The position numbers and the translations under genes were made by a program. A DNA stretch of 64,000 bases from Raja brachyura (lineage: Eukaryota), in NCBI GenBank assembly GCA_963514005.1, contig OY740783.1:104284001-104348000 (forward strand), written 5' to 3'. The notes under the pieces were generated by a model. That model did no database searches, had not been told where the DNA came from, and saw nothing but the letters and a program-made list of their open reading frames with translations. Positions 26,066-63,194 of this stretch are shown here, one piece after another (position 1 is the first letter of the stretch; every line of letters begins with the position of its first letter).

Positions 26066-26877
26066 CATTTGGTTTTGGGAAAGGCCCCAACTTACTGACA
26101 TGCTATCCTCACAGAGGAAGATTGCATTTGGATCATGCTGGAAGAAGCAGTATGGTCCAAGAAGCTGGCAAACAATGAATTTGGATGACACGTACATCAA
26201 TGTGCATTGGTACAGGTGAATAGCATCAATGAATACATGGGGAGAATTGCTTAGCACAAGAAGCAGAAGGAACAGGAAAATATATAGACCGAGTTTGGCA
26301 AATTTGAGGTGGAGAATTTCTTTCCAAGGAAATTGTTAAACTGTCCATTCTCTCAGGTTAGCATTCTAAAATAATCCCTTAGTACTAAATTGAAGAGGGC
26401 CAGGGGAGACCTGACCAATAATTATCCTCTTCCTAATGTAACTAAAAGTAATTATCACAGAGCAGTATTTCTGATCTAATCGTAAAACACATAATACATA
26501 TTTTGCAAGGATCCTTAAATCTATTAACAATAGAGGAATCCATTTAGTAATAAGTGCTGGTTTCACATACCATATTCATAAACTAAATCTAAACTAAAAG
26601 TTGATAAGCATTCTGGCTGAATATTTAATTTCTATAGATAGAGAGATGATAGTCTCTCCCTGTATGAAGTCTTATTCAGCCCACCCACTCGCTGCGATAT
26701 CTACCCTTCTAGCCTATTGACTATATGTGAATTTATTTACTACTAGACAAAGTGGGACCCATTGGTGGCCAGTGGAGGGGGGGGGGGCTTTCTGAAGCAC
26801 TAGTATGGGTGTTGTGGGCTGAAGGGACTGGTTTACAGAGGGCTAGCATGGACATTTGGGATGAATGGATTCTTGGG

Positions 26878-27365
26878 CTGGCAGCTCAGTCACTCAGACC
26901 TGGTGGGCTGGCAGCTCAGTCAATCAGGCCTGGTGGGCAGGCAGCTCAGCCACTCAGGCCTGGTGGGCTGGCAGCTAAGTCACTCAGGCCTTGTTGGTCT
27001 GGCAGCTCTGTCACTCAGGCCTGGTGGGCCTGGCAGCTCAGTCACTCAGGCCTGGTGGGCCTGGCAGCTCAGTCACTCAGGCCTGGTGGGCTGGCAGCTC
27101 AGTCACTCAGGCCTGGTGGGCTGGCAGCTCAGTCACTCAGGCCTGGTGGGCTGGCAGCTCAGCCACTCAGGCCCGGTGGGCTGGCAGCTCAGTCACTCAG
27201 GCCTGGTGGGCTGGCAGCACAGTTACTCAGGCCTGGTGGGCTGGCAGCTCGGTCACTCAGGCCTGATAGGCTGCCAGCTCAGTCACTCAGGGCTGGTGGG
27301 CTGCCAGCTCAGTCATTCAGGGCTGGTGGGCTGGCAGATCAGTCACTCATGCTGGTGGGCCTGCA
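26878..27365 (+). repeat. 30-bp minisatellite, about 16 copies of CTGGCAGCTCAGTCACTCAGGCCTGGTGGG
   Basis: 30-nt periodicity is directly visible. Confidence 0.97.
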
Positions 27366-27539
27366 GCTAAGAAGCTGACAGAAATTCTGCCTAAAACTGG
27401 TGAGGGACTTTGTGAGAGAGAAGGGGGGGGAGGGTGGAGAATCAATTTTTGACATTTTTCATATTTTTCTGCAGATCACGGCAATGAAGGAGTAAAGTCT
27501 TTCCTGGCCTGGATCTCACAGGGAGCCAATGAAGAGAGG

Positions 27540-28210
27540 GCCAACAACTCATTTCATTTCCATGTCAAGCACAGTGCAAGGCCAACAACTCATTTCATTT
27601 CCACGTCAAGCACAGTGTAAGACCACCAACTCATTGGATTGCCATTTCAAGCACAGTGCAAGGCCAACAAGTTATTTCATTTCCGTTTCAAGCACAGTCC
27701 AAGGTCAACAAGTCATTTTTTTTCCATTTCAAGCACAGCACAAGGTCGGCAAGTCATTTAATTTCCATTCCACGCACAGTGCAAGACCAATAACTGATTT
27801 AATTTCCATTCAAGCACAGTGCAAGGCCAACAACTCATTTTATTTCCATTTCAAGCACAGTGCAAGGCCAACAACTCATTTCATTTCACTTTCAAGCACA
27901 GTGCAAGGCCAACAAAGCATTTCATTTCAATTTCTAGCACAGTGCAAGGCCAACAACTCATTTCATTTCCATTTCAAGCACAGTTCAAGGACAACAATTC
28001 ATTTCATTTCCATGTGAAGCACAGTGCAAGTCCAAGAATGCATTTCATTTCCATTTGAAGCACAGTACAAGGCTAACAACTCATTTAGCTTCCATTTCAA
28101 GTACAGTATAAGCCCAACAACTCATTTCATTTCCATTTGAAGCACAGTGCAGGCCAACAACTCATTTCAAGCACAGTGCATGCTAACAACTCATTTCAAG
28201 CACAATGCAG
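27540..28210 (+). repeat. 41-bp minisatellite, about 16 copies of GCACAGTGCAAGGCCAACAACTCATTTCATTTCCATTTCAA
   Basis: GCACAGT recurs every 41 nt (for example 27569 and 27610); units shorten at the right end. Confidence 0.95.
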
Positions 28211-29132
28211 ACTAACAGATCAGTTCACTCACAGCGTAGACTCACAGATCTGGAGTCAACTCTCACTCGCGTTCTTCCAGAGTTACTGACTGATGTCCGA
28301 CCTCCACGGGCTTTATTCTCCTGGGCCCCCTGAGGGGCGTGACCTTCATCATGGTGATCGACAGGCGAGAAGACCAATCAGCTGATCTCACGATTGTTTA
28401 AACATTCATAACTTTTTTATTATTTCACCGATCGGAAAAAACCTTGGGGCGGTTGGTGGAGCGGAGGACAGTGAGTAAGATGGCAAAAAATCAAAGCGAT
28501 ACAGCGTAGCACTTTTTCTAAAATGTATTTACAACGTAGACAGGACGTGGTCATGATGAGACTTTTAGTAATAGTATAGAAGATAGATAGATAGACAATG
28601 TTGGCAGCTTTCCTTCGAAATTTGGAGGCCCAAAACTGGCATGCCCTTTCGAAGTCTCTGCAATTCTCCTTCTTTCTGAAAAACACAACGTAACACAAAG
28701 CTTTTGGTGATTTAGCTACTGATTGTCTTGGAGTCATATTTAATTTAATGGCATTTCCTTGAAATGCATGTTACAGTTTGCCTCTTTGAAGGTTCCACGC
28801 AGCTATAAGTTGTCGGTATTCTGCAACAATAAATGATTTAAATGGCATGCCATTCATAAAACAAATCTGGCAGGTTTGTTGCAATCTCTGTCAATATAAC
28901 TACTGAAATCTAATATCATTTATACTTTAAGTAGCACAAGCCACTTCATCTGAATTTTCCCTTAAGAGACATTGTTCATTATTATCGAATCAACGTGGGA
29001 TCCACAACCCTGTACATAAATCACATTGCCAGGCCCTTAGTTTACACTGACAGTTAGCTAAAATGTTTTCACCAATATTGGCAGGCATCCAGTGAGTTAA
29101 TTTTACTCTGGTGGGCATGGTCTCCATCTTCA

Positions 29133-38848: not shown

Positions 38849-41800
38849 AATAGTAAGATTAAATGGGAACTTATCAGTTTGAAGATTGATCTTGATTTTA
38901 TGAGGAGTTACATTGGTAATTACGTGAAGAACACCACCAGTGCACATGCGCGTCAATCTTCAAAGCAGCAGTATGAAATCACAAATAACAATTACCAAAG
39001 TGACATGGTAAGATGCGTGACTCGAGAACTACCAGATGACCTTTATGAGAGAGGGTTGGGCGTGGAGGGCACGTAATCATAAACGTAACGCCTCATAAAA
39101 TCAAGATCAAACTTCAAACTGGTAAGTTCTCGTTTAATCTTACTATTTTACTTCGGAGTCACGTGAGTGATTCCGTGAAGGGTTCGAAGCTTTGTGATTT
39201 CATGCCGCAGATCCATATCTTGGCGTCTCACTGCATTGATTGATTAAGGATGAGTGAATAATCAAAAAATGCATTAAGCATGATATTGATTCAAATGTAT
39301 TAATGGTTTATGTTAATAAAGAAATCAATAGCAACCCCTGTATTTCAGGGGAGGCTAAAGTGGACGCAAAACAGAATGGGCAAAAAACCCCGTGTCAGTA
39401 ACCGGCCAATGGTACATTTGTTTTTATTATTAAAAAAAAAAAATCAATTCAGTTGACCGACTTGCAGTCGCGAGGATATGGTCGATGGGAATGTCCATTG
39501 CCCTGGCCGCTGACGTTGATGCTGCCCTGGTGGAATGATGTATACAATCATCATACCTGCAAAACCCAGAACCTGCTGCAGCCACCTTGAAATAGTTTGA
39601 ACCGACCTTCCCATTTGTGGTCATTTGTCGATTAATAAACAATGCTGATTCCACACTTCTTATGATTCTGATGGCCTTGAAATAATATAGCAAGCCTGCC
39701 CTCCCACATAGACGTGAAACCGTGGGGTATCCAAAAAATGTTCTTAAATCCTGCCACCCCTGGTCTGCTCTGCTTGTGTAGATCAGAATGTAAAATGTAA
39801 TGGCACCTGCAGCCAATTCCATCCTATCTAGCCACAGCGTTTGCAATGTTTGCCCTCGTTGTGCTGATATTAGTGTCATGACTATGGATGTAGCTGGAAC
39901 CCCCTGGTGAAGTAATGTTAACACATTTTCAATATTCAAACTGCATATTCTTGTAATGGGAGAACTTGTGTCAAGATCTCTTTTACAACTCGATATCCAG
40001 GGTTGAACCCAACAGAGTGGTTCCCGTTTGTTGCAGCTGTAGTGGCTCTATAACTGAATTATTATCAAATATCATTTAAGAATGAACTGGAAGACGTCAG
40101 TAATCTGTATCGTATTAAATGTAACATTAACATTTAAACAAAACCGCTTCCGATCCCCTCAATAGGAATGTACTGCTTTTTTGGGTGCTATCCCTGCACT
40201 CTGTAGTGAGCACATCCATGGCTTGATGTGACGACCTGAGCCGTAAGTCAATCCATTCAGAATGTGTAAGTCAATAATTGTTTTATTATGCAGAGGCCGG
40301 TTTCCTGAACCACAGTTTGAACCAGCAAAGTTTTTGTTTCTTAGAATAACTGTATACCGTTGTATTATTATGCCTGATGAAAGCAGGCAACATGGCTGCT
40401 TAGCCAGTCCAACAGTACGAACCTAAAGTGAGGTCTTGCTGACTGTTTCAAGACCTGACTAATGAGGCAAAATGAAGGAAGACCTAAAGAACATTCCTCC
40501 TTTTGTAGTGAGAATGTATTTCTCCGCACTGTTGTGCCACATATTTTTGCAATCGGTGAATAAACATGAAACCAACAAATCGATATTTGTTGTACCATAC
40601 TTTCATAATAATTCACAATACCTATTCTGTGTTGTCATCAATCTGACAAAGGAGATTAAATCTCTAAAGCAGATTAGGTAAATTATTACAGGATACATTT
40701 ACTTGATTGGTATGTGACTAACATATGCCACCACCGTAGTGTAACAACTTGAAGTTGAGCATGTAGAATATGTATATTCGCTCAATAGCCCCTTACCCAT
40801 GGGGTGCATCTAGTGTATATATTTAATTGATACCAACAACTGAAGAATTGGTAACTCATGCAAATCTCCACTACCTCCAACTAGAGATGGTATTCGGAAC
40901 TTCTCACCTTAGAGCCCTTAGCATCAGTTTGTAATAACTGAATTCGACCAACCAAACTACTGGAGCAATGCTGAGTACTGTTTGTTCATCATTGTGACTG
41001 AGGTAGCTTCAGGTGATAATAGCATAAGGTTGTTAGCAATGGTCTACATGTCCTTTGAGAGGTCGCTACTTTGCACGATAACAGTTCCTTGATTTGCTCA
41101 GCTGAATCACAGCTACTATATTGCCAACTATTCTTGATGAAATAAAAGTCAGTTTTATAACAGGTTGCTATTAACTCCAATCTCTTGCCACAGAGCGGAG
41201 TCATAGGCTAATTAATAGTTAAAGGTAAATCCCGATGACCAACAAACAGTTTATCCCATTTGGCAATGTTTTACTGTTATTAGTACAGTTATATTGTCTT
41301 TGATAACCTCTGTAATGGGAACTGCATAGAATGGATCTTTGAGACCCTTATGAATCTGTTGCTAGTCAGGAAAATAAGTTTTCATATTCGGAAAGTTCAT
41401 ATGCCCGACACTCTCCATTTTTCATAATAAACAGGCCACTCCTGCCTTATTCCATGGGTGCTTTGCATGAGAACTCTGGCCCGATTTCTGAACGTTATCT
41501 TCAAAGACAACCCTGACCATAATCCAAACTTGCTTGAAATGCTAGTACTGTGCCTCTAAGCAGATGTTTTTATCCTTTGTGTGTTGTACAAACAAGTGTA
41601 AATATTACAACTTGTGAGTGGTGCACTTACCCATGTTTCGGAAGTGCCAGACCCACTTTGTTGAGTATGGTTGGTAGTGTGCGTGGAACTTTTGCCCAGC
41701 TGTCATGCTGCCCCCAGCTCCAGTGAACTGCCTACTGCCGATGAGCGCCTGGGGTGCATTCTGAAATGACGAACCTTTGCCCACCGTTGGCCTTAATTGA

Positions 41801-42879
41801 TTCATCTGCCAGGTTTTCTCCCCTGTTGAATAGGCCTTACCTGAATAACAGATTCGGCGGCTGGCTCTCACATCCCCCCCCGTTGGCGCTGTTCACTGCC
41901 GGCACATATGTGCTCTAGTATGTTCCATCAACCTCTTTAGAGCCTGGAGTCAATATGTCTTGATCTTTCGCACTCCCCTCCTCAGAGAGGGAAATTCATA
42001 GGCAGCCATAAATAGGCGCTGCCGCAGGAAACCTGCTATGACCCCATTGGACCCGAATGGAACATTCTGCTGGGGTGGTAGCTTTGTTGTCAGGAAAAGG
42101 TACCTCTGACACGTGCCCTTCATCCCTTGGGGTGTGCCCCACGGCCATACCCTGAGACTCGGCGTCAGCAGGACACTGACCTGTCTTGGTCTCTGCCTCC
42201 GAGAGGGAGACCTGAAGCAGCTCTGTCAACTGGCGCTGCTGGTATGGCCTGAAGAGATGGAACATCTGGCTCAACCTTAACATCAGAGCCGGGGTCAGAG
42301 TTAAGATGACCCATGGCACGCGCCTCATCATCCATGAGGCTGCTATCAAGCAGCTCTCTACTAGGTGCTGCTGGCACCTTTTGTTCAGGGTGGCACTGAC
42401 ACTCCTCCTGCTGGCGTGTGCCCTGCTGTAGCACTGTATGCAATAGTTGCTGCATTTGGGATAGTCGTTTCAAGTGAACTATCCAGGCACTGTCAGCAAC
42501 TCTGGCGTTACTTACGTGCCACTCCACGGCATCCCCGCAGGCTGGAAGCCACTGACTGCCTTGTCAGCAGCTGCTTTTCTCACAACCCGATCTTTTGCCG
42601 TTTATCCGCTTTCGCGGTCAGGCCGGGGTTTCCCCACAGTCCATAACCGGCTCACTCATCGGCCTGTGAAACTGGCAGGAAAACCTCTGTGAAGAGAGAC
42701 TCCTGCTTGAAAAAAACCCCAGGTAAGTAAAAACAAACTTACCTTCTAGGTTTAACTTACCACCGGCAGGAGCGCTGCCCTGCCAGTCTGGTGCTTGCGC
42801 CAATGTGGCTGATGTACTGACCCGCATGCGCAGTGGCGGGGTTCTTCACGGAATCACTCACGTCACTCCGAAGTAAAAT
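38849..42879 (-). mobile_element. DIRS1-type tyrosine-recombinase retrotransposon, copy 1 (strongly degraded)
   Basis: Termini homologous to copy 2; short ITR (38922-38956 versus 42818-42851); internal complementary region at about 39080-39180; YR motifs SAQRGQTL and HSTRAASTS; ATT at both junctions. Confidence 0.9.
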
Positions 42880-43171
42880 CAATGATAATTTTCAGGGGTG
42901 CTGGTATGCTGTACCAGAGCGACCATTACAAAAGAATTTTAGAATAATCCAACCTGGTTATACTAATCCAAATCATTGCCAGTGCTCGTTAGCAAAGGAC
43001 ATGTAATGTTCCCATTCAGGCTTTAATGTTGTTGATTGTTAATTGCTCTTTAATTTGAACTAGCAAGTCATTCAGGACTGCCGTTGCTACCTTTCTAATG
43101 TTAATTAGGAAAAAGCAATAAATCCCTGAATACCCATATCCCAAGTATAACCAAAAAAAATCACAAGTAGA

Positions 43172-55537: not shown

Positions 55538-55736
55538 ATTTTACTTCGGAGTCACCTGAGTGATTCCGTGAAGAAATCCTGCCAGTCCACATGCGCGTCA
55601 TTACGTCTGACGCATGGCGCACTGATGGGCTGGCAAGCGCATAGCCCCACCAGCGGTAAGTTAAAAACCCTGAGGTAAGTTTTTAACCTTAGCTTTCTGG
55701 GGTCCGTGAATCTTGTTTACAGGAAACAAGTCGACC

Positions 55737-56850
55737 ATGGAGAAAATGATCAAGGGAAGGTTGAGGCGGTCCGCTGCAAAAACAGTTACGGAAGACTGCG
55801 GGAGTGTGGGTAGCGGGTGGCCGTCCATTTCCCCTTCAGAGTCGCTGGCGGCACGGCCAGAGGCTTCCAACTTGGTACCGGTGGAAGGCACCATGGCTAC
55901 TCCGGCGGGCCGGAAAGCCACCAAAAAGTTGGTGCGGCCCGTAGACTCTGATGAGTCGGGCCAGGAGGAAAGCCCTCCCATGATGGATGCCATTTTTGGG
56001 CAGCTGCCCAGAATGGAGCTCCTCATGGAGAGGATGCTCCATGCCAATATGCTTGAGGAAGACGAGCTTTATAGCCGCGAGACTCGTCGGGGGCCCGTGG
56101 CAGCAGCGCCTATAGAAGGGCTGCTTAATGTACCCCTCATGGAGGAGAAGAGTACAAGGAGTCAGTTTAGTTCAGACTCCGAGGTCGAGGGTATAGCGAG
56201 TGAGCATACCTCCAGACAAGGAGACCTGGCATCTCGGGTCCCAAGCCTGGCATCCAAATTTGGTATTCCAGCTGGAACTGGGGGACCGTTGAATGAGGAT
56301 TTGGCCAGGACCATTAATTACATGGTCTCTCATCAACTGCAAGACCTCATGATGGAGAACACCTCCAAGGAATAACAAACACCCACAAATTGTGCCTCCC
56401 TCAGAGTTCCAATGGTGAATCACCCAATATGGGGTCACATGGGTGCAGGGATCAGAGCCCAACAATTGAGGCTCCAAAAGTTTCTGAAGCTGCTTGCTTC
56501 AGGAATCACGGCATTCGCTAGGTTTGTTGATGATGGGGCTCTCTCTGAGGAGCAACAAGATGCACATTTCGAGATCAACTGTTTAAGGAAGAGTGCAATC
56601 CACCCCATGCTAAATCCTAAATTTGCGGCACTATGCAAGGCAAGCAATGTGCAGCCGCCGAATTTACTGTTCGGGGATTACTTGTCCAAACAGGTCCGAG
56701 AATTGGATGATGAGGAAAAAATGGTTGGCCTCATAAAAGCCCAACCGGCCAGCCAAAAATCTCCGCCGGTGGCAACACCCCTACCAATGCTTCATTGCAA
56801 TGGGTTCAGGCCAAGGAGCAAGCCGGACCCAGCCAACTATGCACAATTGG
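55737..56850 (+). pseudogene. DIRS ORF1 (gag-like), disrupted
   Basis: ATG in the context ACCATGG; P.NC.SLRVPMVNHPIW, LRK..I.P.LNPKFAALC and LLFGDYL.KQVREL motifs; premature stop at 56373-56375. The end coordinate is approximate. Confidence 0.8.
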
Positions 56851-56904
56851 CATACACCAACATTCTCCTCCAAAACACGGGGGCAGAAGTATATAACACC
56901 AACT

Positions 56905-58829
56905 ATGGAGGTAAGTGGATCTGGTTCTTTTCCAGAAATGTATGGGCCAGTCACAAGTTGGTGGGAGGTTACATTTGTTTTTCAATGAGTGGAGTTGTAT
57001 AACCTCTGACTTGTTTATATTGCACAGTATACTAGGTTTCCGAATTGAATTAATTTTCAAATTATGTCCACCCATACAGTATACACCTAGATGAACATTC
57101 TGTTTTTCACAACAATAGTCTTTAGATGTACAAGCTGAAATTGAAACATTAGCTAAAAAAGGGGTAATTGAGAAATCTTTTTATCAATCTCATCAATTTG
57201 TGTCTAATATATTCCCTAGACAAAAGAAAGATGGTGGGTGTCACATCATTCTTGATCTAACTTGACTTAACTCCTATGTGCATTATAAATATTTCAAAAT
57301 AGAAACTTTTGTTACTGCCAAACAACTGGTTTCGAAAGGATGCTATATGACATGCATAGATCTCAAAGATGCATACTATTCAGTACCCATTCATCATAAT
57401 CACCAGAGATATTTGAAATTTAGCTGGATGAATTATGGCAGTTTAAGGCATTGCCTAATGGATTAACTTTGGCTCCCAGGCTATTTACAAAATTGTTAAA
57501 AACCAGTGTTGGATCTACTCCGGGCTCACGATCATATTATCATGGCCTATTTGGATGATATCCTAATCATAGGCAAGACTCAGCAGTCAGCTGAATTATC
57601 TGTTTCAGCTACCAAACTCATGTTTGAGAGATAGGGATTTCTTATAAATCCAGTTAAATCCAAAGGGATACCAACCAAAGTCATTGATTATTTGGGGTTC
57701 ACCATTAATTCAACTTGCATGTCTGTGACTCTGACTCCAGGCAAGAGGTCAGAATTAATAGAAGCTTGTAACAGCCTCGTTGATGAGCAACAATCCCCTA
57801 TTCGGCATGTGGCTAGTATAATTGGCAAATTAGTAGCTGCATTTCCAGCTGCACAGTTTGGTCCTTTACATTATCAGAATTTCCAATGTGCAAAGGAGCA
57901 GGCAGTCATAAAGCATGCAGGTCATTTTGATAGACCTATGCAATTACCTGCTGAAGCTGTTGCTGAGTTACAATGGTGGATAGTGAATATATGGCACTGC
58001 TCCAGTAAAATTTGGATTGATACACCTTCAGTAATTTTACAAACTGATGTTAGTGCTCTAGGATGGGGAGCTACTGATACCATCTCCAGCTGTGGGGGCA
58101 GATGGAATATGCATGAGGCATTAATCCATCAATCCCATGGTATTAACAACTTAGAGTTGTTGGGAGCACTCTATGGTTTAAAAGCATGTTGTACAAGTAT
58201 GCATGATTTGCATGTGCAGCTTCAGATTGACAACACTACAGTAGTAGCATACGTTAATCACATGGGTGGAATCAAGTTGGAATCATGTGATAAGTTGACT
58301 AACCTTATCTGGCACTGGTGTATTACAAGATACATCTGGATTTCCAGGTAGATTTACCAGGTAGATATAACGTGGTGGCAGACACCAGATCACAAATATT
58401 CAATGACAACACAGAATGGATGTTGAATCGTGAAATATTCAATGATATTGTCGCTCGTTATGGCGTACCAGAGATTGACTTGTTTGCATCCAGATTGAAT
58501 CACCAGTTACCAAAGTATGTTTCATGGGACCCAGACCCTGGGGCAGTGGCGGTAGATGCATTCTCGCTACACTGGGGTGGAATGTTTTTATATGCATTTC
58601 CCCATTTTGCCTCAACAGACGGTGCTTTACTAAGATTGAGCAGGACTCGGCCTCAGGCATTTTGGTAGTTCCTGACTAGCCTACACAGCCGTGGTTTCCA
58701 CTAGTTCTGAGACTAATAACACAGCCTTTTATGGTGATCCCCAAAAGCAGTAACCTGCTGGTTCATCCAGTAACTGGGGAGAATCATCCACTACATGATC
58801 ATATTAATCTATTGATTTGCAGATTCTGA
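56905..58829 (+). pseudogene. DIRS reverse transcriptase / RNase H / Dam-methyltransferase-like ORF, disrupted
   Basis: KKDGG, IDLKDAYYSVP, LPNGL..APRLFTK, YLDD (57548-57559), TDVS..GWGA, INNLEL, DNTTVVAYVN, IDLFAS..N, VDAF..W, YAFP. Confidence 0.93.
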
Positions 58830-59803
58830 GGAGACCGTTCCTGGGGCTTGGACTATCAGGGCATACAGTGGATGTGATTACTGCGGCCTGGAGGGATAGT
58901 ACTAAAATACAATATATTTCTCATATCAAGAAATGGGAGGCGTTCTACTTGCAGTTGAACATTTCATATCATATGTATCGTCTGAAGAAGGGTCTCGACC
59001 CGAAACATCACCCATCTCCTTTGCTCCTTAGATGCTGCTGCACCCGCTGAGTTTCTCAAGCCTTTTGTGTACCCCCCATTTCATATCATACAGCAGGCGT
59101 ACCTGATGTGTTGGAATTGCTTTCCACGTTATATTTTGATGAACGACATAGCTATAGTGCCATCAGTAGTGCCAGGGGACAACACTCTGTTGGGTCTCAC
59201 CCTTTAATATCTCGGTTCATGAAGGGTATTTTTAACTGTAATCCCCCCCCAGGCCCAGGTACACGGAAATCTGGGATGTGAGTGTGGTTCTTGTGTTGCT
59301 TCGTCAACAGGCCCCAGTAACATCTCTGTCATTGCCCAGACTCACTCTTAAAGTGGTTATGCTCATGGCGCTGGTTCAGCGCAATGTGTCCAGACATTGC
59401 AGAAGCTTCCACTGGACAGGATGGTTTCATCTGTCAACAACATAACCTTCACCTATGTGTAGTTACGCACTTACGGTGGTATACTGAGGTCACTAAGTGC
59501 CTCAGAGGCCCCGAATAGGCATTATTTATCAGTCACAAAAAGCCTCATGAAAAGATGTCAGTACAGACCATCTCAAGGTAGCTGAAACAGGTTCTGGCTT
59601 CCGCCGGAGTTGACACTGATATTTTTAAATCTTACTCCACCAGGGCAGCATCAACGTCAGCAGCGAGGGCACTGAACGTCCCTCTAGACAAAATCCTCGT
59701 GGCCGCAGGATGGTCCAAAGAAATTACTTTTGAAAGGTTCTATCACAAACCTCTTGCCACACCAGGGGTGTATGGCCATTCAATTTTGAGTTCTGTTTTG
59801 TAG
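58823..59803 (+). pseudogene. DIRS tyrosine recombinase, disrupted
   Basis: AWRDSTKIQY..KKW, SHPLISRFMKGIFN, LTLKVVMLMAL, STRAASTS, AGWS..TFERFY.KPL. Confidence 0.9.
58974..59076 (+). mobile_element. 103-bp hammerhead-bearing Penelope-terminus insertion with a 14-bp TSD
   Basis: CATTTCATATCATA at 58960-58973 and 59077-59090 flanks CTGAAGAAGGGTCTCGACCCGAAACATC... Confidence 0.85.
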
Positions 59804-60295
59804 CTTCCCCCTGGGAGAGAGGGGTCGCTATTGGTTTTTCTTTTGTTAAATAAAGCATCAACGTGTTTAATTCTGTATCATGTTTGAATGCATTATTTGT
59901 TATTACTCATCCTGTGTCAACCGAGGCAGTGTGTCGTATGGACTCGTATCCACGGCATGAAATCACAGAGCTTTGAAGTCTTCACGGAATCACGCACGTG
60001 ACTCCGAAGTAAAATAGTAAGATTAAATGGGAATTTACCAGTTTGTAGTTTGATCTATGTTTTATGAGGAGTTATGATGATCAATTACGTACCCACCACT
60101 ACCAACCCCATATCACAAAGGTCATCTGGTAGTTTCTAGGTTTTCTAATCTTACTATGTTACTTCAATTACCGTTATCGCTCATCGTAACCCCTCATAAA
60201 ATAAAGATCAAACTTCAAACTGGTAAGTTCTCATTTAATCTTACTATTCTTGATTAGTACGGATGTCAGGATTATGTGGAGATGGCGAGAGAATG

Positions 60296-60936: not shown

Positions 60937-62300
60937 GTCAAGTCAAGTCAATTTTATTTGTCCCATACACATACAAGATGTGCGGTGAAATGAAAGTGGC
61001 AATGCCTGCGGGTTGGGTAAACAAGTACAGAACAGAATAGAACAGAATCAGTATTTACATATTAGAAAAACCCAGCAATTTAAAAAAGACACAACACAAC
61101 AGTAAATTAGTCCCTGGTGAGATAAGAGTTTACAGTCCTAATGGCCTGTGGGAAGAAACTCCGTTTCATCCTCTCCGTTTTCACAGCATGACAGTGGAGG
61201 CGTTTGCCTGACCGTAGCAGCTGGGACAGTCCATTGCTGGGGTGGAAGGGGTCCCCATAATGTTTCTGGCTCTGGATCTGGACCTTTTGATGTATAGTTC
61301 CCAAACTAGATTGTGATGTTGCCAGCCAAGATGCTTTCTATAGCCCCCCGAGTAGAAGCACTGAACGATCCTCAGAGAGACTTTGAATTTCTTCAGCTGC
61401 CTGAGGTGGTAAAGGTGCTGCCTTGCCTTACTCACTAGTGCGGCAGTGTGTGTTGTCCATGTCAGATCCTCCGTGATGTGGACTCCCAGGTATTTAACGC
61501 AGCTCATCCTATCCACAGTAATCCCATTTATCTCCAGTGGCATGTATGTCATCGGAAGTTGTGCCCTTTTAAAGTCCACAATCAGCTCCTTGGTTTGTAT
61601 GACATTCAAGAGGAGACTGTTGTCCTGACACCAGAGTGCCAGATCAGCCACCTCCTCCCGGTAGGCCTTCTCATTGTTATCGGAGATCAGGCCCACCACC
61701 CCAGTGTCATCAGCAAACTTGATTATAGAGTTGGAGCTGAGCCTGGCCACACAGTCATGTGTGTACAGGGAGTACAGTAGGGGGCTGAGGACGCAACCCT
61801 GGGGGGATCCTGTGTTCAGCGTGAGGGTGATGTATTTCTTCCCATCTTGACTACCTGGGGCCTGGCAGTGAGAAAGTCCAGGCCTGACCCAGGCACACAG
61901 GGGAGTGTTAAGCCCCATTTCCAGCAGCTTCGCAGCAGGTCTGGTGGGGACTATCATATTGAAGGCTGAACTGAAGTCAATGAACAGCATCCTAACTTAG
62001 CCCCCCCTTCTGGCTGTCAAGGTGAGAGAAAGCGGTGTGCAGAACTTGGGAGACCGCATCATCTGTGGATCTGTTTGGACGGTATGTGAGCTGTAGCCGG
62101 TCCATGTAGCGAGGGAGGAAGGCGAAGATGTGGTTCTTCACCAGCCTCTCGTAGCATTTCATGACTACTGAGGTGAGAGCCACCGGTCGGTAGTCATTCA
62201 AACAAAGCTGGAGAGACATTCTTTGGTACAGATACAATGATGGATCTTTTGAAGTAGGCAGGGACCACGGACTTGGCCAGGGAGAGGTTGAATATTGGAT
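60937..62300 (-). mobile_element. Rex1/Babar-type LINE, RT through 3' tail
   Basis: [56 protein letters not shown]; (TTGAC)3 tail; frameshifted. Confidence 0.95.
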
Positions 62301-63194
62301 GAGTAGACTTTATGGACCGATGAACAGTGAACAAAATTTTCTACAGATTCTTGTGAATTTAATTTCTTATCAGGAATTGTATGTATTTTTCCCATTTAAA
62401 TTTGTTGTTTGTTTACAGATTCACATAAGACTATAGTGGAAAAACACTCAGAACAAAAATCTAGCTATGATCTGAATTGCAGTGTACAGATAAATGTGCA
62501 AAATTATCTTACGACGTTGCCCTGGGATGTTCTAAATATGTTTTTAATGTAGAAAATTTCATAATAGGTAAGTATTTTATAAGGCTTCACATGTTTTGAA
62601 GAGAGCGTATAATGTGTGAGTAATGGAGTTCGAGAGATGCCTGAAGAAAGGACCCAGCTGTGCTCAGGAAGGTTTATTGACTTGAATGTCATAAACAGAT
62701 TCAGGGCATGAAAATACAGCAGCTGATAAATCTTTACCACCAGAATTAAACTAATACATTGATACCTTATTACAAATTTCACCTTAGCTAGATATTTTTC
62801 AGAAAGTTATGATGACATTTCAGGAAAAGTAATTTTTACCCATGTGGAAGATTAATTCCATCTGCAGTAGAAATAACTCTGCACAGTGCACAAACTAGAG
62901 ATGATGTGAATATAGAGCATTTGTACATTTTCAACAATATAAAGGCCTGCGGCCCAATGATGCTGCTATTCGGGCTGATGCCTCACAGCTTCAGTGACCG
63001 GATTCAATCCTGACCTTTGATGCTGTCCAAGTGAAGTTTGCATATCCTCTCTGAAACTGCTTTTGTTTCCTTCATGTGTTATAGTTGTAAACATTCCAAA
63101 CCTGGGTGGTAGAAGCTGGGAATGTTGTTGGAAACATTCCCAGGTTGGAACTTTCTTGATGGAATGATAGAAACTTTCCTTTTGGAAGGAGACG

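Follow-up and report, generated by a model that had tools for sequence, protein, structure and literature searches.

A predicted intron spanning pol and a putative Gag-recombinase product in DIRS1-like retrotransposons of Raja brachyura

We believe that a lineage of DIRS1-like retrotransposons in Raja brachyura probably made its tyrosine recombinase (YR) by splicing out pol, so that the spliced RNA would be translated into Gag-YR and the unspliced RNA into Gag-Pol. The element in question lies in a window of 64,000 nucleotides, by which we mean the whole stretch of DNA that was analysed. On sequence grounds, the splice itself, from a donor before the reverse transcriptase (RT) to an acceptor at the start of YR, is likely real. 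With somewhat less assurance, we consider it reasonably likely that the arrangement extends to a broad DIRS1-like clade with a short pol/YR overlap, in which pol would be a spliceosomal intron, a single promoter would suffice for Gag, Gag-Pol and Gag-YR through a -1 frameshift or an in-frame fusion together with the splice choice, and the acceptor would have moved among three pol motifs with its phase kept. If this is true, host splicing control would set the RT-to-recombinase ratio and would be a likely point of silencing, the annotation of DIRS ORFs would change, and the recurrent Gag-YR gene models in public proteomes would be explained. For the ATG-less DIRS recombinase, the analysis supplies exact predicted junctions in many elements.

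Structure of the window element and its predicted splice sites

The window element is a dead DIRS1-like retrotransposon copy (Table 1), damaged by private +1 insertions, by stops and frameshifts in gag and pol, and by a repeat insertion in YR. Its internal complementary region (ICR) is complementary to both termini. Inverted terminal repeats with 45-nt arms (93% complementary) were found in the related locus L049, and none were recovered in the decayed window copy. Profile searches found RVT_1 above the cut-off and weak Dam matches in L049 and L057, and RT_RNaseH in L064; the window copy's own pol fragments gave only a weak match in the methyltransferase region. The recombinase ORF of family copy L026 matched PF00589 (E 5e-5) and PF13495 under the curated cut-offs, whereas the YR of related families passed the profile cut-off. 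As in DIRS1-like elements according to the main texts of PMC3266345 and PMC9210276, there are gag, RT/RNase H/methyltransferase, YR, terminal inverted repeats, an ICR and a short pol/YR overlap. The difference is that gag and pol form one frame in the window family, L043 and L057 instead of belonging to three separate overlapping ORFs, and this single frame is a variant DIRS1 layout. A further GTAAGT donor-like site was seen at 60223 in the right terminal region.

Table 1. Features annotated in the window (positions counted from its first letter)
Feature	Position	Strand
Copy 1, from a different DIRS family with decayed pol, probably non-autonomous	38851..42880	-
DIRS1-like retrotransposon, decayed copy with gag-pol, YR, terminal repeats and ICR	55538..60250	+
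Left terminus, pairs with left ICR 59979-60015 (37 nt, 95% complementary)	55538..55574	+
Two donor-like GTAAGT sites (55656, 55675), kept in every family with leader read	55656..55680	+
Acceptor-like site just ahead of gag ATG, possible 5' leader intron	55707..55722	+
gag part of fused gag-pol frame, broken in window copy; predicted exon 1 coding part	55737..56910	+
ATG of the original prediction; internal Met of gag-pol in window family	56905..56907	+
Predicted splice donor, phase 0 (family mostly GAG/GTAGGT)	56911..56916	+
Predicted intron, 1912 nt, spanning nearly all pol (RT, RNase H, methyltransferase-like)	56911..58822	+
Last YR-frame stop codon (TAA) ahead of acceptor	58805..58807	+
Predicted acceptor AG, phase 0, within final pol codons (C-R-F-stop)	58821..58822	+
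Tyrosine recombinase frame, predicted exon 2, broken in window copy	58823..59803	+
pol stop TGA	58827..58829	+
Short interspersed repeat inserted in YR (103 nt), 14-bp target duplication	58974..59076	
Internal complementary region (ICR), left and right parts	59979..60089	+
Right terminal region, pairs with right ICR 60013-60089 (77 nt, 87%)	60172..60248	+

The ATG, the GAG behind it, the donor, the TAA stop and the acceptor AG were all confirmed at the positions first predicted, with the YR frame reading ILRRPF from the first letter of exon 2, and both junctions were again found in phase 0 when the sequence was re-read. The ends are GT and AG with consensus context, conserved and in frame, as in a U2 intron. 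By weight matrices, the donor scored joint first among the 266 GT sites of the window element and the acceptor approximately 14th among its 307 AG sites. The family was sampled as the best 40 of 5651 first-look DNA-search candidates, the 39 other copies being approximately 88% alike. The donor had been called perfect; GTAAGT is indeed present in the window copy but is private to it (1/31 family copies), and 24 of the 31 carry GTAGGT, which is still a good donor. This alignment has 31 rows, as 9 loci are without the region. The conservation check on the acceptor turned out well, with the AG intact in 38/40 copies, all 40 loci having been picked by that very region. Conservation inside a family was not taken as selection, because the copies share a recent source. 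The best acceptor-like site of the element is at 56936, 25 nt past the main donor and too close for an intron from it, and it could serve the leader donors.

The original prediction took the ATG for the start of the RT ORF, so that one start codon would serve RT when unspliced and YR when spliced. This mostly did not hold up: gag enters in frame in 12/25 copies, in which the length from a gag anchor to the ATG is divisible by three (234 and 237 nt being the commonest lengths), while the remaining 13, the window copy among them, carry indels mostly differing from copy to copy. Lengths divisible by three indicate that in the window family the gag frame continues past the ATG into RT, and the splice would therefore fuse all of gag, not Met-Glu alone, to YR.

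The minus-strand copy 1 had been cited as keeping the same donor. Its ATG-G-GTAAGT is there (41634-41625), but the AC read as its acceptor is common to all 6 rows aligned at that place. Copy 1 was rejected as support for a working splice because of this shared AC and because its family is nearly without RT similarity (one short match in 12 loci). The family (L167-L178) is abundant, with 2223 first-look candidates, keeps its termini and both leader donors, carries a GTAAG donor at the gag end in 12/12 loci, and is probably non-autonomous. Elsewhere in the window, tandem arrays of 30-nt and 41-nt units occupy 26815-28219, and broken reverse transcriptase frames, which we take to be LINE-type, lie at 61181-62309 (minus strand).

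Donors and acceptors in other families and other hosts

The PF00589 profile search of the genome gave 95 scored loci, all of which were retrieved, and the DIRS families among them are approximately 65-75% alike. In the window family, L043/49, L044, L055-57 and L059, a phase-0 xAG/GTA donor stands 48-54 nt ahead of GGRL, where RT starts, and the frameshifted L058 has a donor at a similar place. For L049 (minus strand), exon 1 is predicted to end at approximately base 4041 and exon 2 to begin at approximately base 2121. The codons preceding it differ by family (ATG GAG, GGA GAG, GCG GAG, ATG CAG, AGG GAG). In every genome family read, the acceptor TGCAG is at the same place, and a YR-frame stop lies 5-8 codons upstream of it in most copies, L050 being open further. 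The gag-pol frames are open over 987 aa in L043 and 1028 aa in L057, and in L059 gag is separate from pol. A pair of leader GTAAG sites approximately 17-20 nt apart was seen inside the left terminus in the window element, L043, L046-49, L052-58 and copy 1, several of these families also having an acceptor-like site before the gag ATG; the pair is likely to be a leader intron or a U1-binding element.

The youngest family counts against splicing on two points: its donor, GAG/GTACAT, is weak (score 5.6, the weakest among the fused families), and it has an in-frame Met close to the YR start. GGAGAG/GTACAT was read in 61/68 copies, the site being unreadable in the other 7. Copies of this young family (L043, L046, L049, L053, L054, L092-L163) are mostly 98-99% identical, 68 of 75 further YR-bearing loci belong to it, and it has a single gag-pol frame of approximately 1050 aa, which suggests recent activity. 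The deleted copies L114 and L161 were considered as spliced copies and discarded, as their breaks do not fall at the splice sites.

Scanning metagenome sequence yielded 32 foreign loci with 36-50% YR identity. The pol start is covered in eleven of them, all with a phase-0 GT donor 6-69 nt upstream of G[RK]L. In the 7/7 foreign elements with whole gag, the donor lies 2-29 nt past the gag stop, under the 50 nt distance of NMD. Donors in the pol phase that score at least 7 and lie no more than 75 nt ahead of the RT G[RK]L were found in 13 of 17 elements (11 foreign, 6 own) compared with 7/391 control pol windows, and, for elements with gag sequence, in 10/13 compared with 4/143 gag-side windows; the windows and thresholds of this and the following test were chosen with the data already in view, and the elements are not unrelated, so these contrasts overstate independence. 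Acceptors in the YR phase that score at least 6 and lie no more than 30 nt from the last stop upstream were found, with the same reservation, in 16 of 27 elements (22 foreign, 5 own; 10 foreign loci that were short, frameshifted or duplicate were left out) compared with 22/910 control stops, and the counts in phase 1 and phase 2 were 0/27 and 0/27, respectively.

Three pol motifs serve as the place of the acceptor (FPPF-S, a middle site and LxCR), always with phase 0, and on the YR tree the switching between them requires 3 changes. FPPF is followed by an AGY codon in 5/5 elements whose YR frame opens within 30 nt of it and in 1/17 others. At the protein level, with 58/120 proteins skipped, Gln stands at the LxCR-type site in 18/24 YR ORFs called from near it compared with 9/38 with long open extensions. 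Several results speak against splicing: 11/27 acceptors score under 6, two elements are without an acceptor near the stop, L042 has no donor, L075 and L083 have weak ones, and the YR frame of L076 and L086 is open well upstream of the best acceptor. Tandem donors 4 nt apart (GTAG-GT) were observed at L086:1725-1734 and L044:2687-2696; an out-of-frame splice from them could yield free Gag.

Search for spliced products and rival readings

No intron-less genomic copy was found, either as a match to the window-family junction with 2 mismatches allowed (0 matches) or among 75 further YR-bearing loci (0/75). This was counted against splicing, although the RT of Dictyostelium DIRS-1 acts in trans according to the main text of PMC7192593. 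When contigs of X1, X2, X3 and X5 (runs without RNA record) were compared with the young-family L049, the predicted joint was present in 0 of the 15 joints listed out of 74. Contigs of X1, X8 and X9 compared with L049 gave 10 joints, none at the predicted sites; the donor-side bins were the least covered, none of X8 and X9 were placed, and neither comparison counts for or against splicing. The gag-profile search, a weak one, did not return any longer proteins with gag, and the viral_contigs scan found nothing. The short metagenome loci L078, L082, L087, L088, L090 and L091 were set aside as spliced forms, there being no gag joined to YR.

Some public gene models, which are predictions, have gag fused to YR and leave RT out. 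They come from a sea urchin (Diadema, P0001 and P0002), a brittle star (Amphiura, P0011 and P0149), a clam (Ruditapes, P0045 and P0095) and a beetle (Callosobruchus, P0070, P0100 and P0102, alongside gag-only models), and Gag-YR models stand under the accessions XP_071483612.1, XP_060553557.1 and CAH7714905.1. The joins of P0001, P0002 and P0149 fall at about the same YR position. In most of these models the frameshift seems to be crossed by means of an additional join, and sites of this kind are preferred by gene finders, so the models do not amount to independent proof. The long Logan/ENA YR proteins P0029, P0033, P0037 and P0040 were rejected as spliced products, since they look like an overlapping alternative pol frame. 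In P0029, a 1294-aa Logan ORF, a gag-like start runs through the alternative pol frame into YR, and long-overlap DIRS might make Gag-YR in this way without splicing.

The absence of intron-less copies, together with the copy 1 family having retained its donor and not its acceptor, fits a reading without any splicing, in which ribosomes would get to YR by shifting -1 a second time or by initiating internally where pol and YR overlap, and the motifs would be protein-motif by-products or only U1 sites. In intact foreign elements YR does lie in the -1 frame of pol, and frameshifting has been proposed for the YR of Ngaro (Poulter and Butler 2015, as quoted in PMC13003380). However, the pol/YR overlap of the window family is only approximately 20 nt with no slippery heptamer visible there, and the phase-0 enrichment at both ends, the acceptor turnover among three sites and the AGY covariation would be left unexplained. 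We consider this reading improbable.

A little less probable again, and in our view unlikely, is the original prediction in its full form, namely the same intron with translation starting at the ATG before the donor, so that M-E-YR would be made from spliced RNA and M-E-RT from unspliced RNA; the start could arise by reinitiation past the gag stop or from a shorter RNA. The ATG is intact in 26/31 window-family copies, it recurs directly before the donor in five families of the genome, and an ATG stands at most 2 codons from the donor in L059, L048/L114, L164, L055-57 and the foreign L081 and L086. L059, where it is 2 nt past the gag stop, is the strongest case, but L059 also bears a slippery heptamer. 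The window-family gag is in frame, so ribosomes would traverse the ATG. The window copy has no strong acceptor a short way ahead of this ATG, and the youngest family, L107, L044, L052/L058 and 9/11 foreign elements lack the ATG altogether. The shared start is thus poorly supported, as gag runs through the ATG and several families are without it. It is very unlikely that a leader donor (55656 or 55675) is spliced directly to the YR acceptor and that translation then starts at a Met further on. In favour of this, both strong leader donors are kept in every family read in the genome, and the youngest family has its Met near the YR start. Against it, the first in-frame Met of the window family is at approximately residue 105 of YR (L011, L017), foreign elements show no evident pair of leader donors, and the donor at the gag end would be left unexplained.

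Proposed expression plan and comparison with known systems

Under the preferred reading, in which Gag-YR depends on splicing and Gag-Pol on its absence, the unspliced RNA would be the genome. In separate-gag elements, it would yield Gag and Gag-Pol, and the spliced RNA would yield Gag and Gag-YR: most ribosomes would end at the gag stop, and those slipping -1 would continue into RT or, on spliced RNA, into YR. In fused families, the products would be Gag-Pol and Gag-YR with no slip needed. Gag would in this way carry both enzymes into the particle. For the fused families, the plan accounts for no source of free Gag.

TTTTTTA or TTTAAAC was found in the -1 phase of the gag/pol overlap in 8/8 separate-gag elements in which the overlap is complete (7 foreign and L059), upstream of the donor, which is in the pol frame. 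In the 7 foreign elements, neither heptamer occurs in that phase elsewhere in gag, and TTTAAAC is also present in three further partial foreign loci. Seven of the 8 overlaps were folded, with a clear hairpin downstream in approximately 3. A slippery heptamer in this phase means that pol likely needs no ATG of its own. We take UUUUUUA to be the -1 frameshift site of HIV-1 and UUUAAAC that of coronaviruses. Separate-gag DIRS carry the same heptamers in the right phase of the gag/pol overlap, whereas the fused gag-pol families of the genome are without them.

Goodwin and Poulter in 2004 reportedly described introns in some YR retrotransposons. A splice with pol as its intron was undescribed in the literature searched, which consisted of main texts, including those of PMC7192593, PMC9341512, PMC4495291, PMC3266345, PMC9940879, PMC13003380, PMC9210276, PMC6681497 and PMC4157794, with the founding DIRS papers and Repbase outside its scope. 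The main texts of Piednoel 2011 (PMC3266345) and Gazolla 2022 (PMC9210276) contain 0 occurrences of "splic" or "intron", and the mentions of splicing in the main text of PMC7192593 concern marker introns. The only proposal found in print for an ATG-less recombinase, as far as the main texts go, is the programmed frameshift for Ngaro (Poulter and Butler 2015). The Ngaro elements as quoted in PMC13003380 resemble the present ones in that their YR frame has few ATGs and overlaps the end of pol in -1, whereas here splicing is indicated for YR and frameshifting for pol. The plan of DIRS pol splicing is apparently undescribed in the literature searched.

Drosophila copia gag RNA, gypsy and retroviral env, and foamy virus pol are made through spliced RNA. 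As in these systems, host splicing in DIRS would express or balance a downstream gene while the unspliced RNA would serve as the genome. In contrast to them, DIRS pol itself is the predicted intron, and the predicted product is a fusion of Gag with the recombinase.
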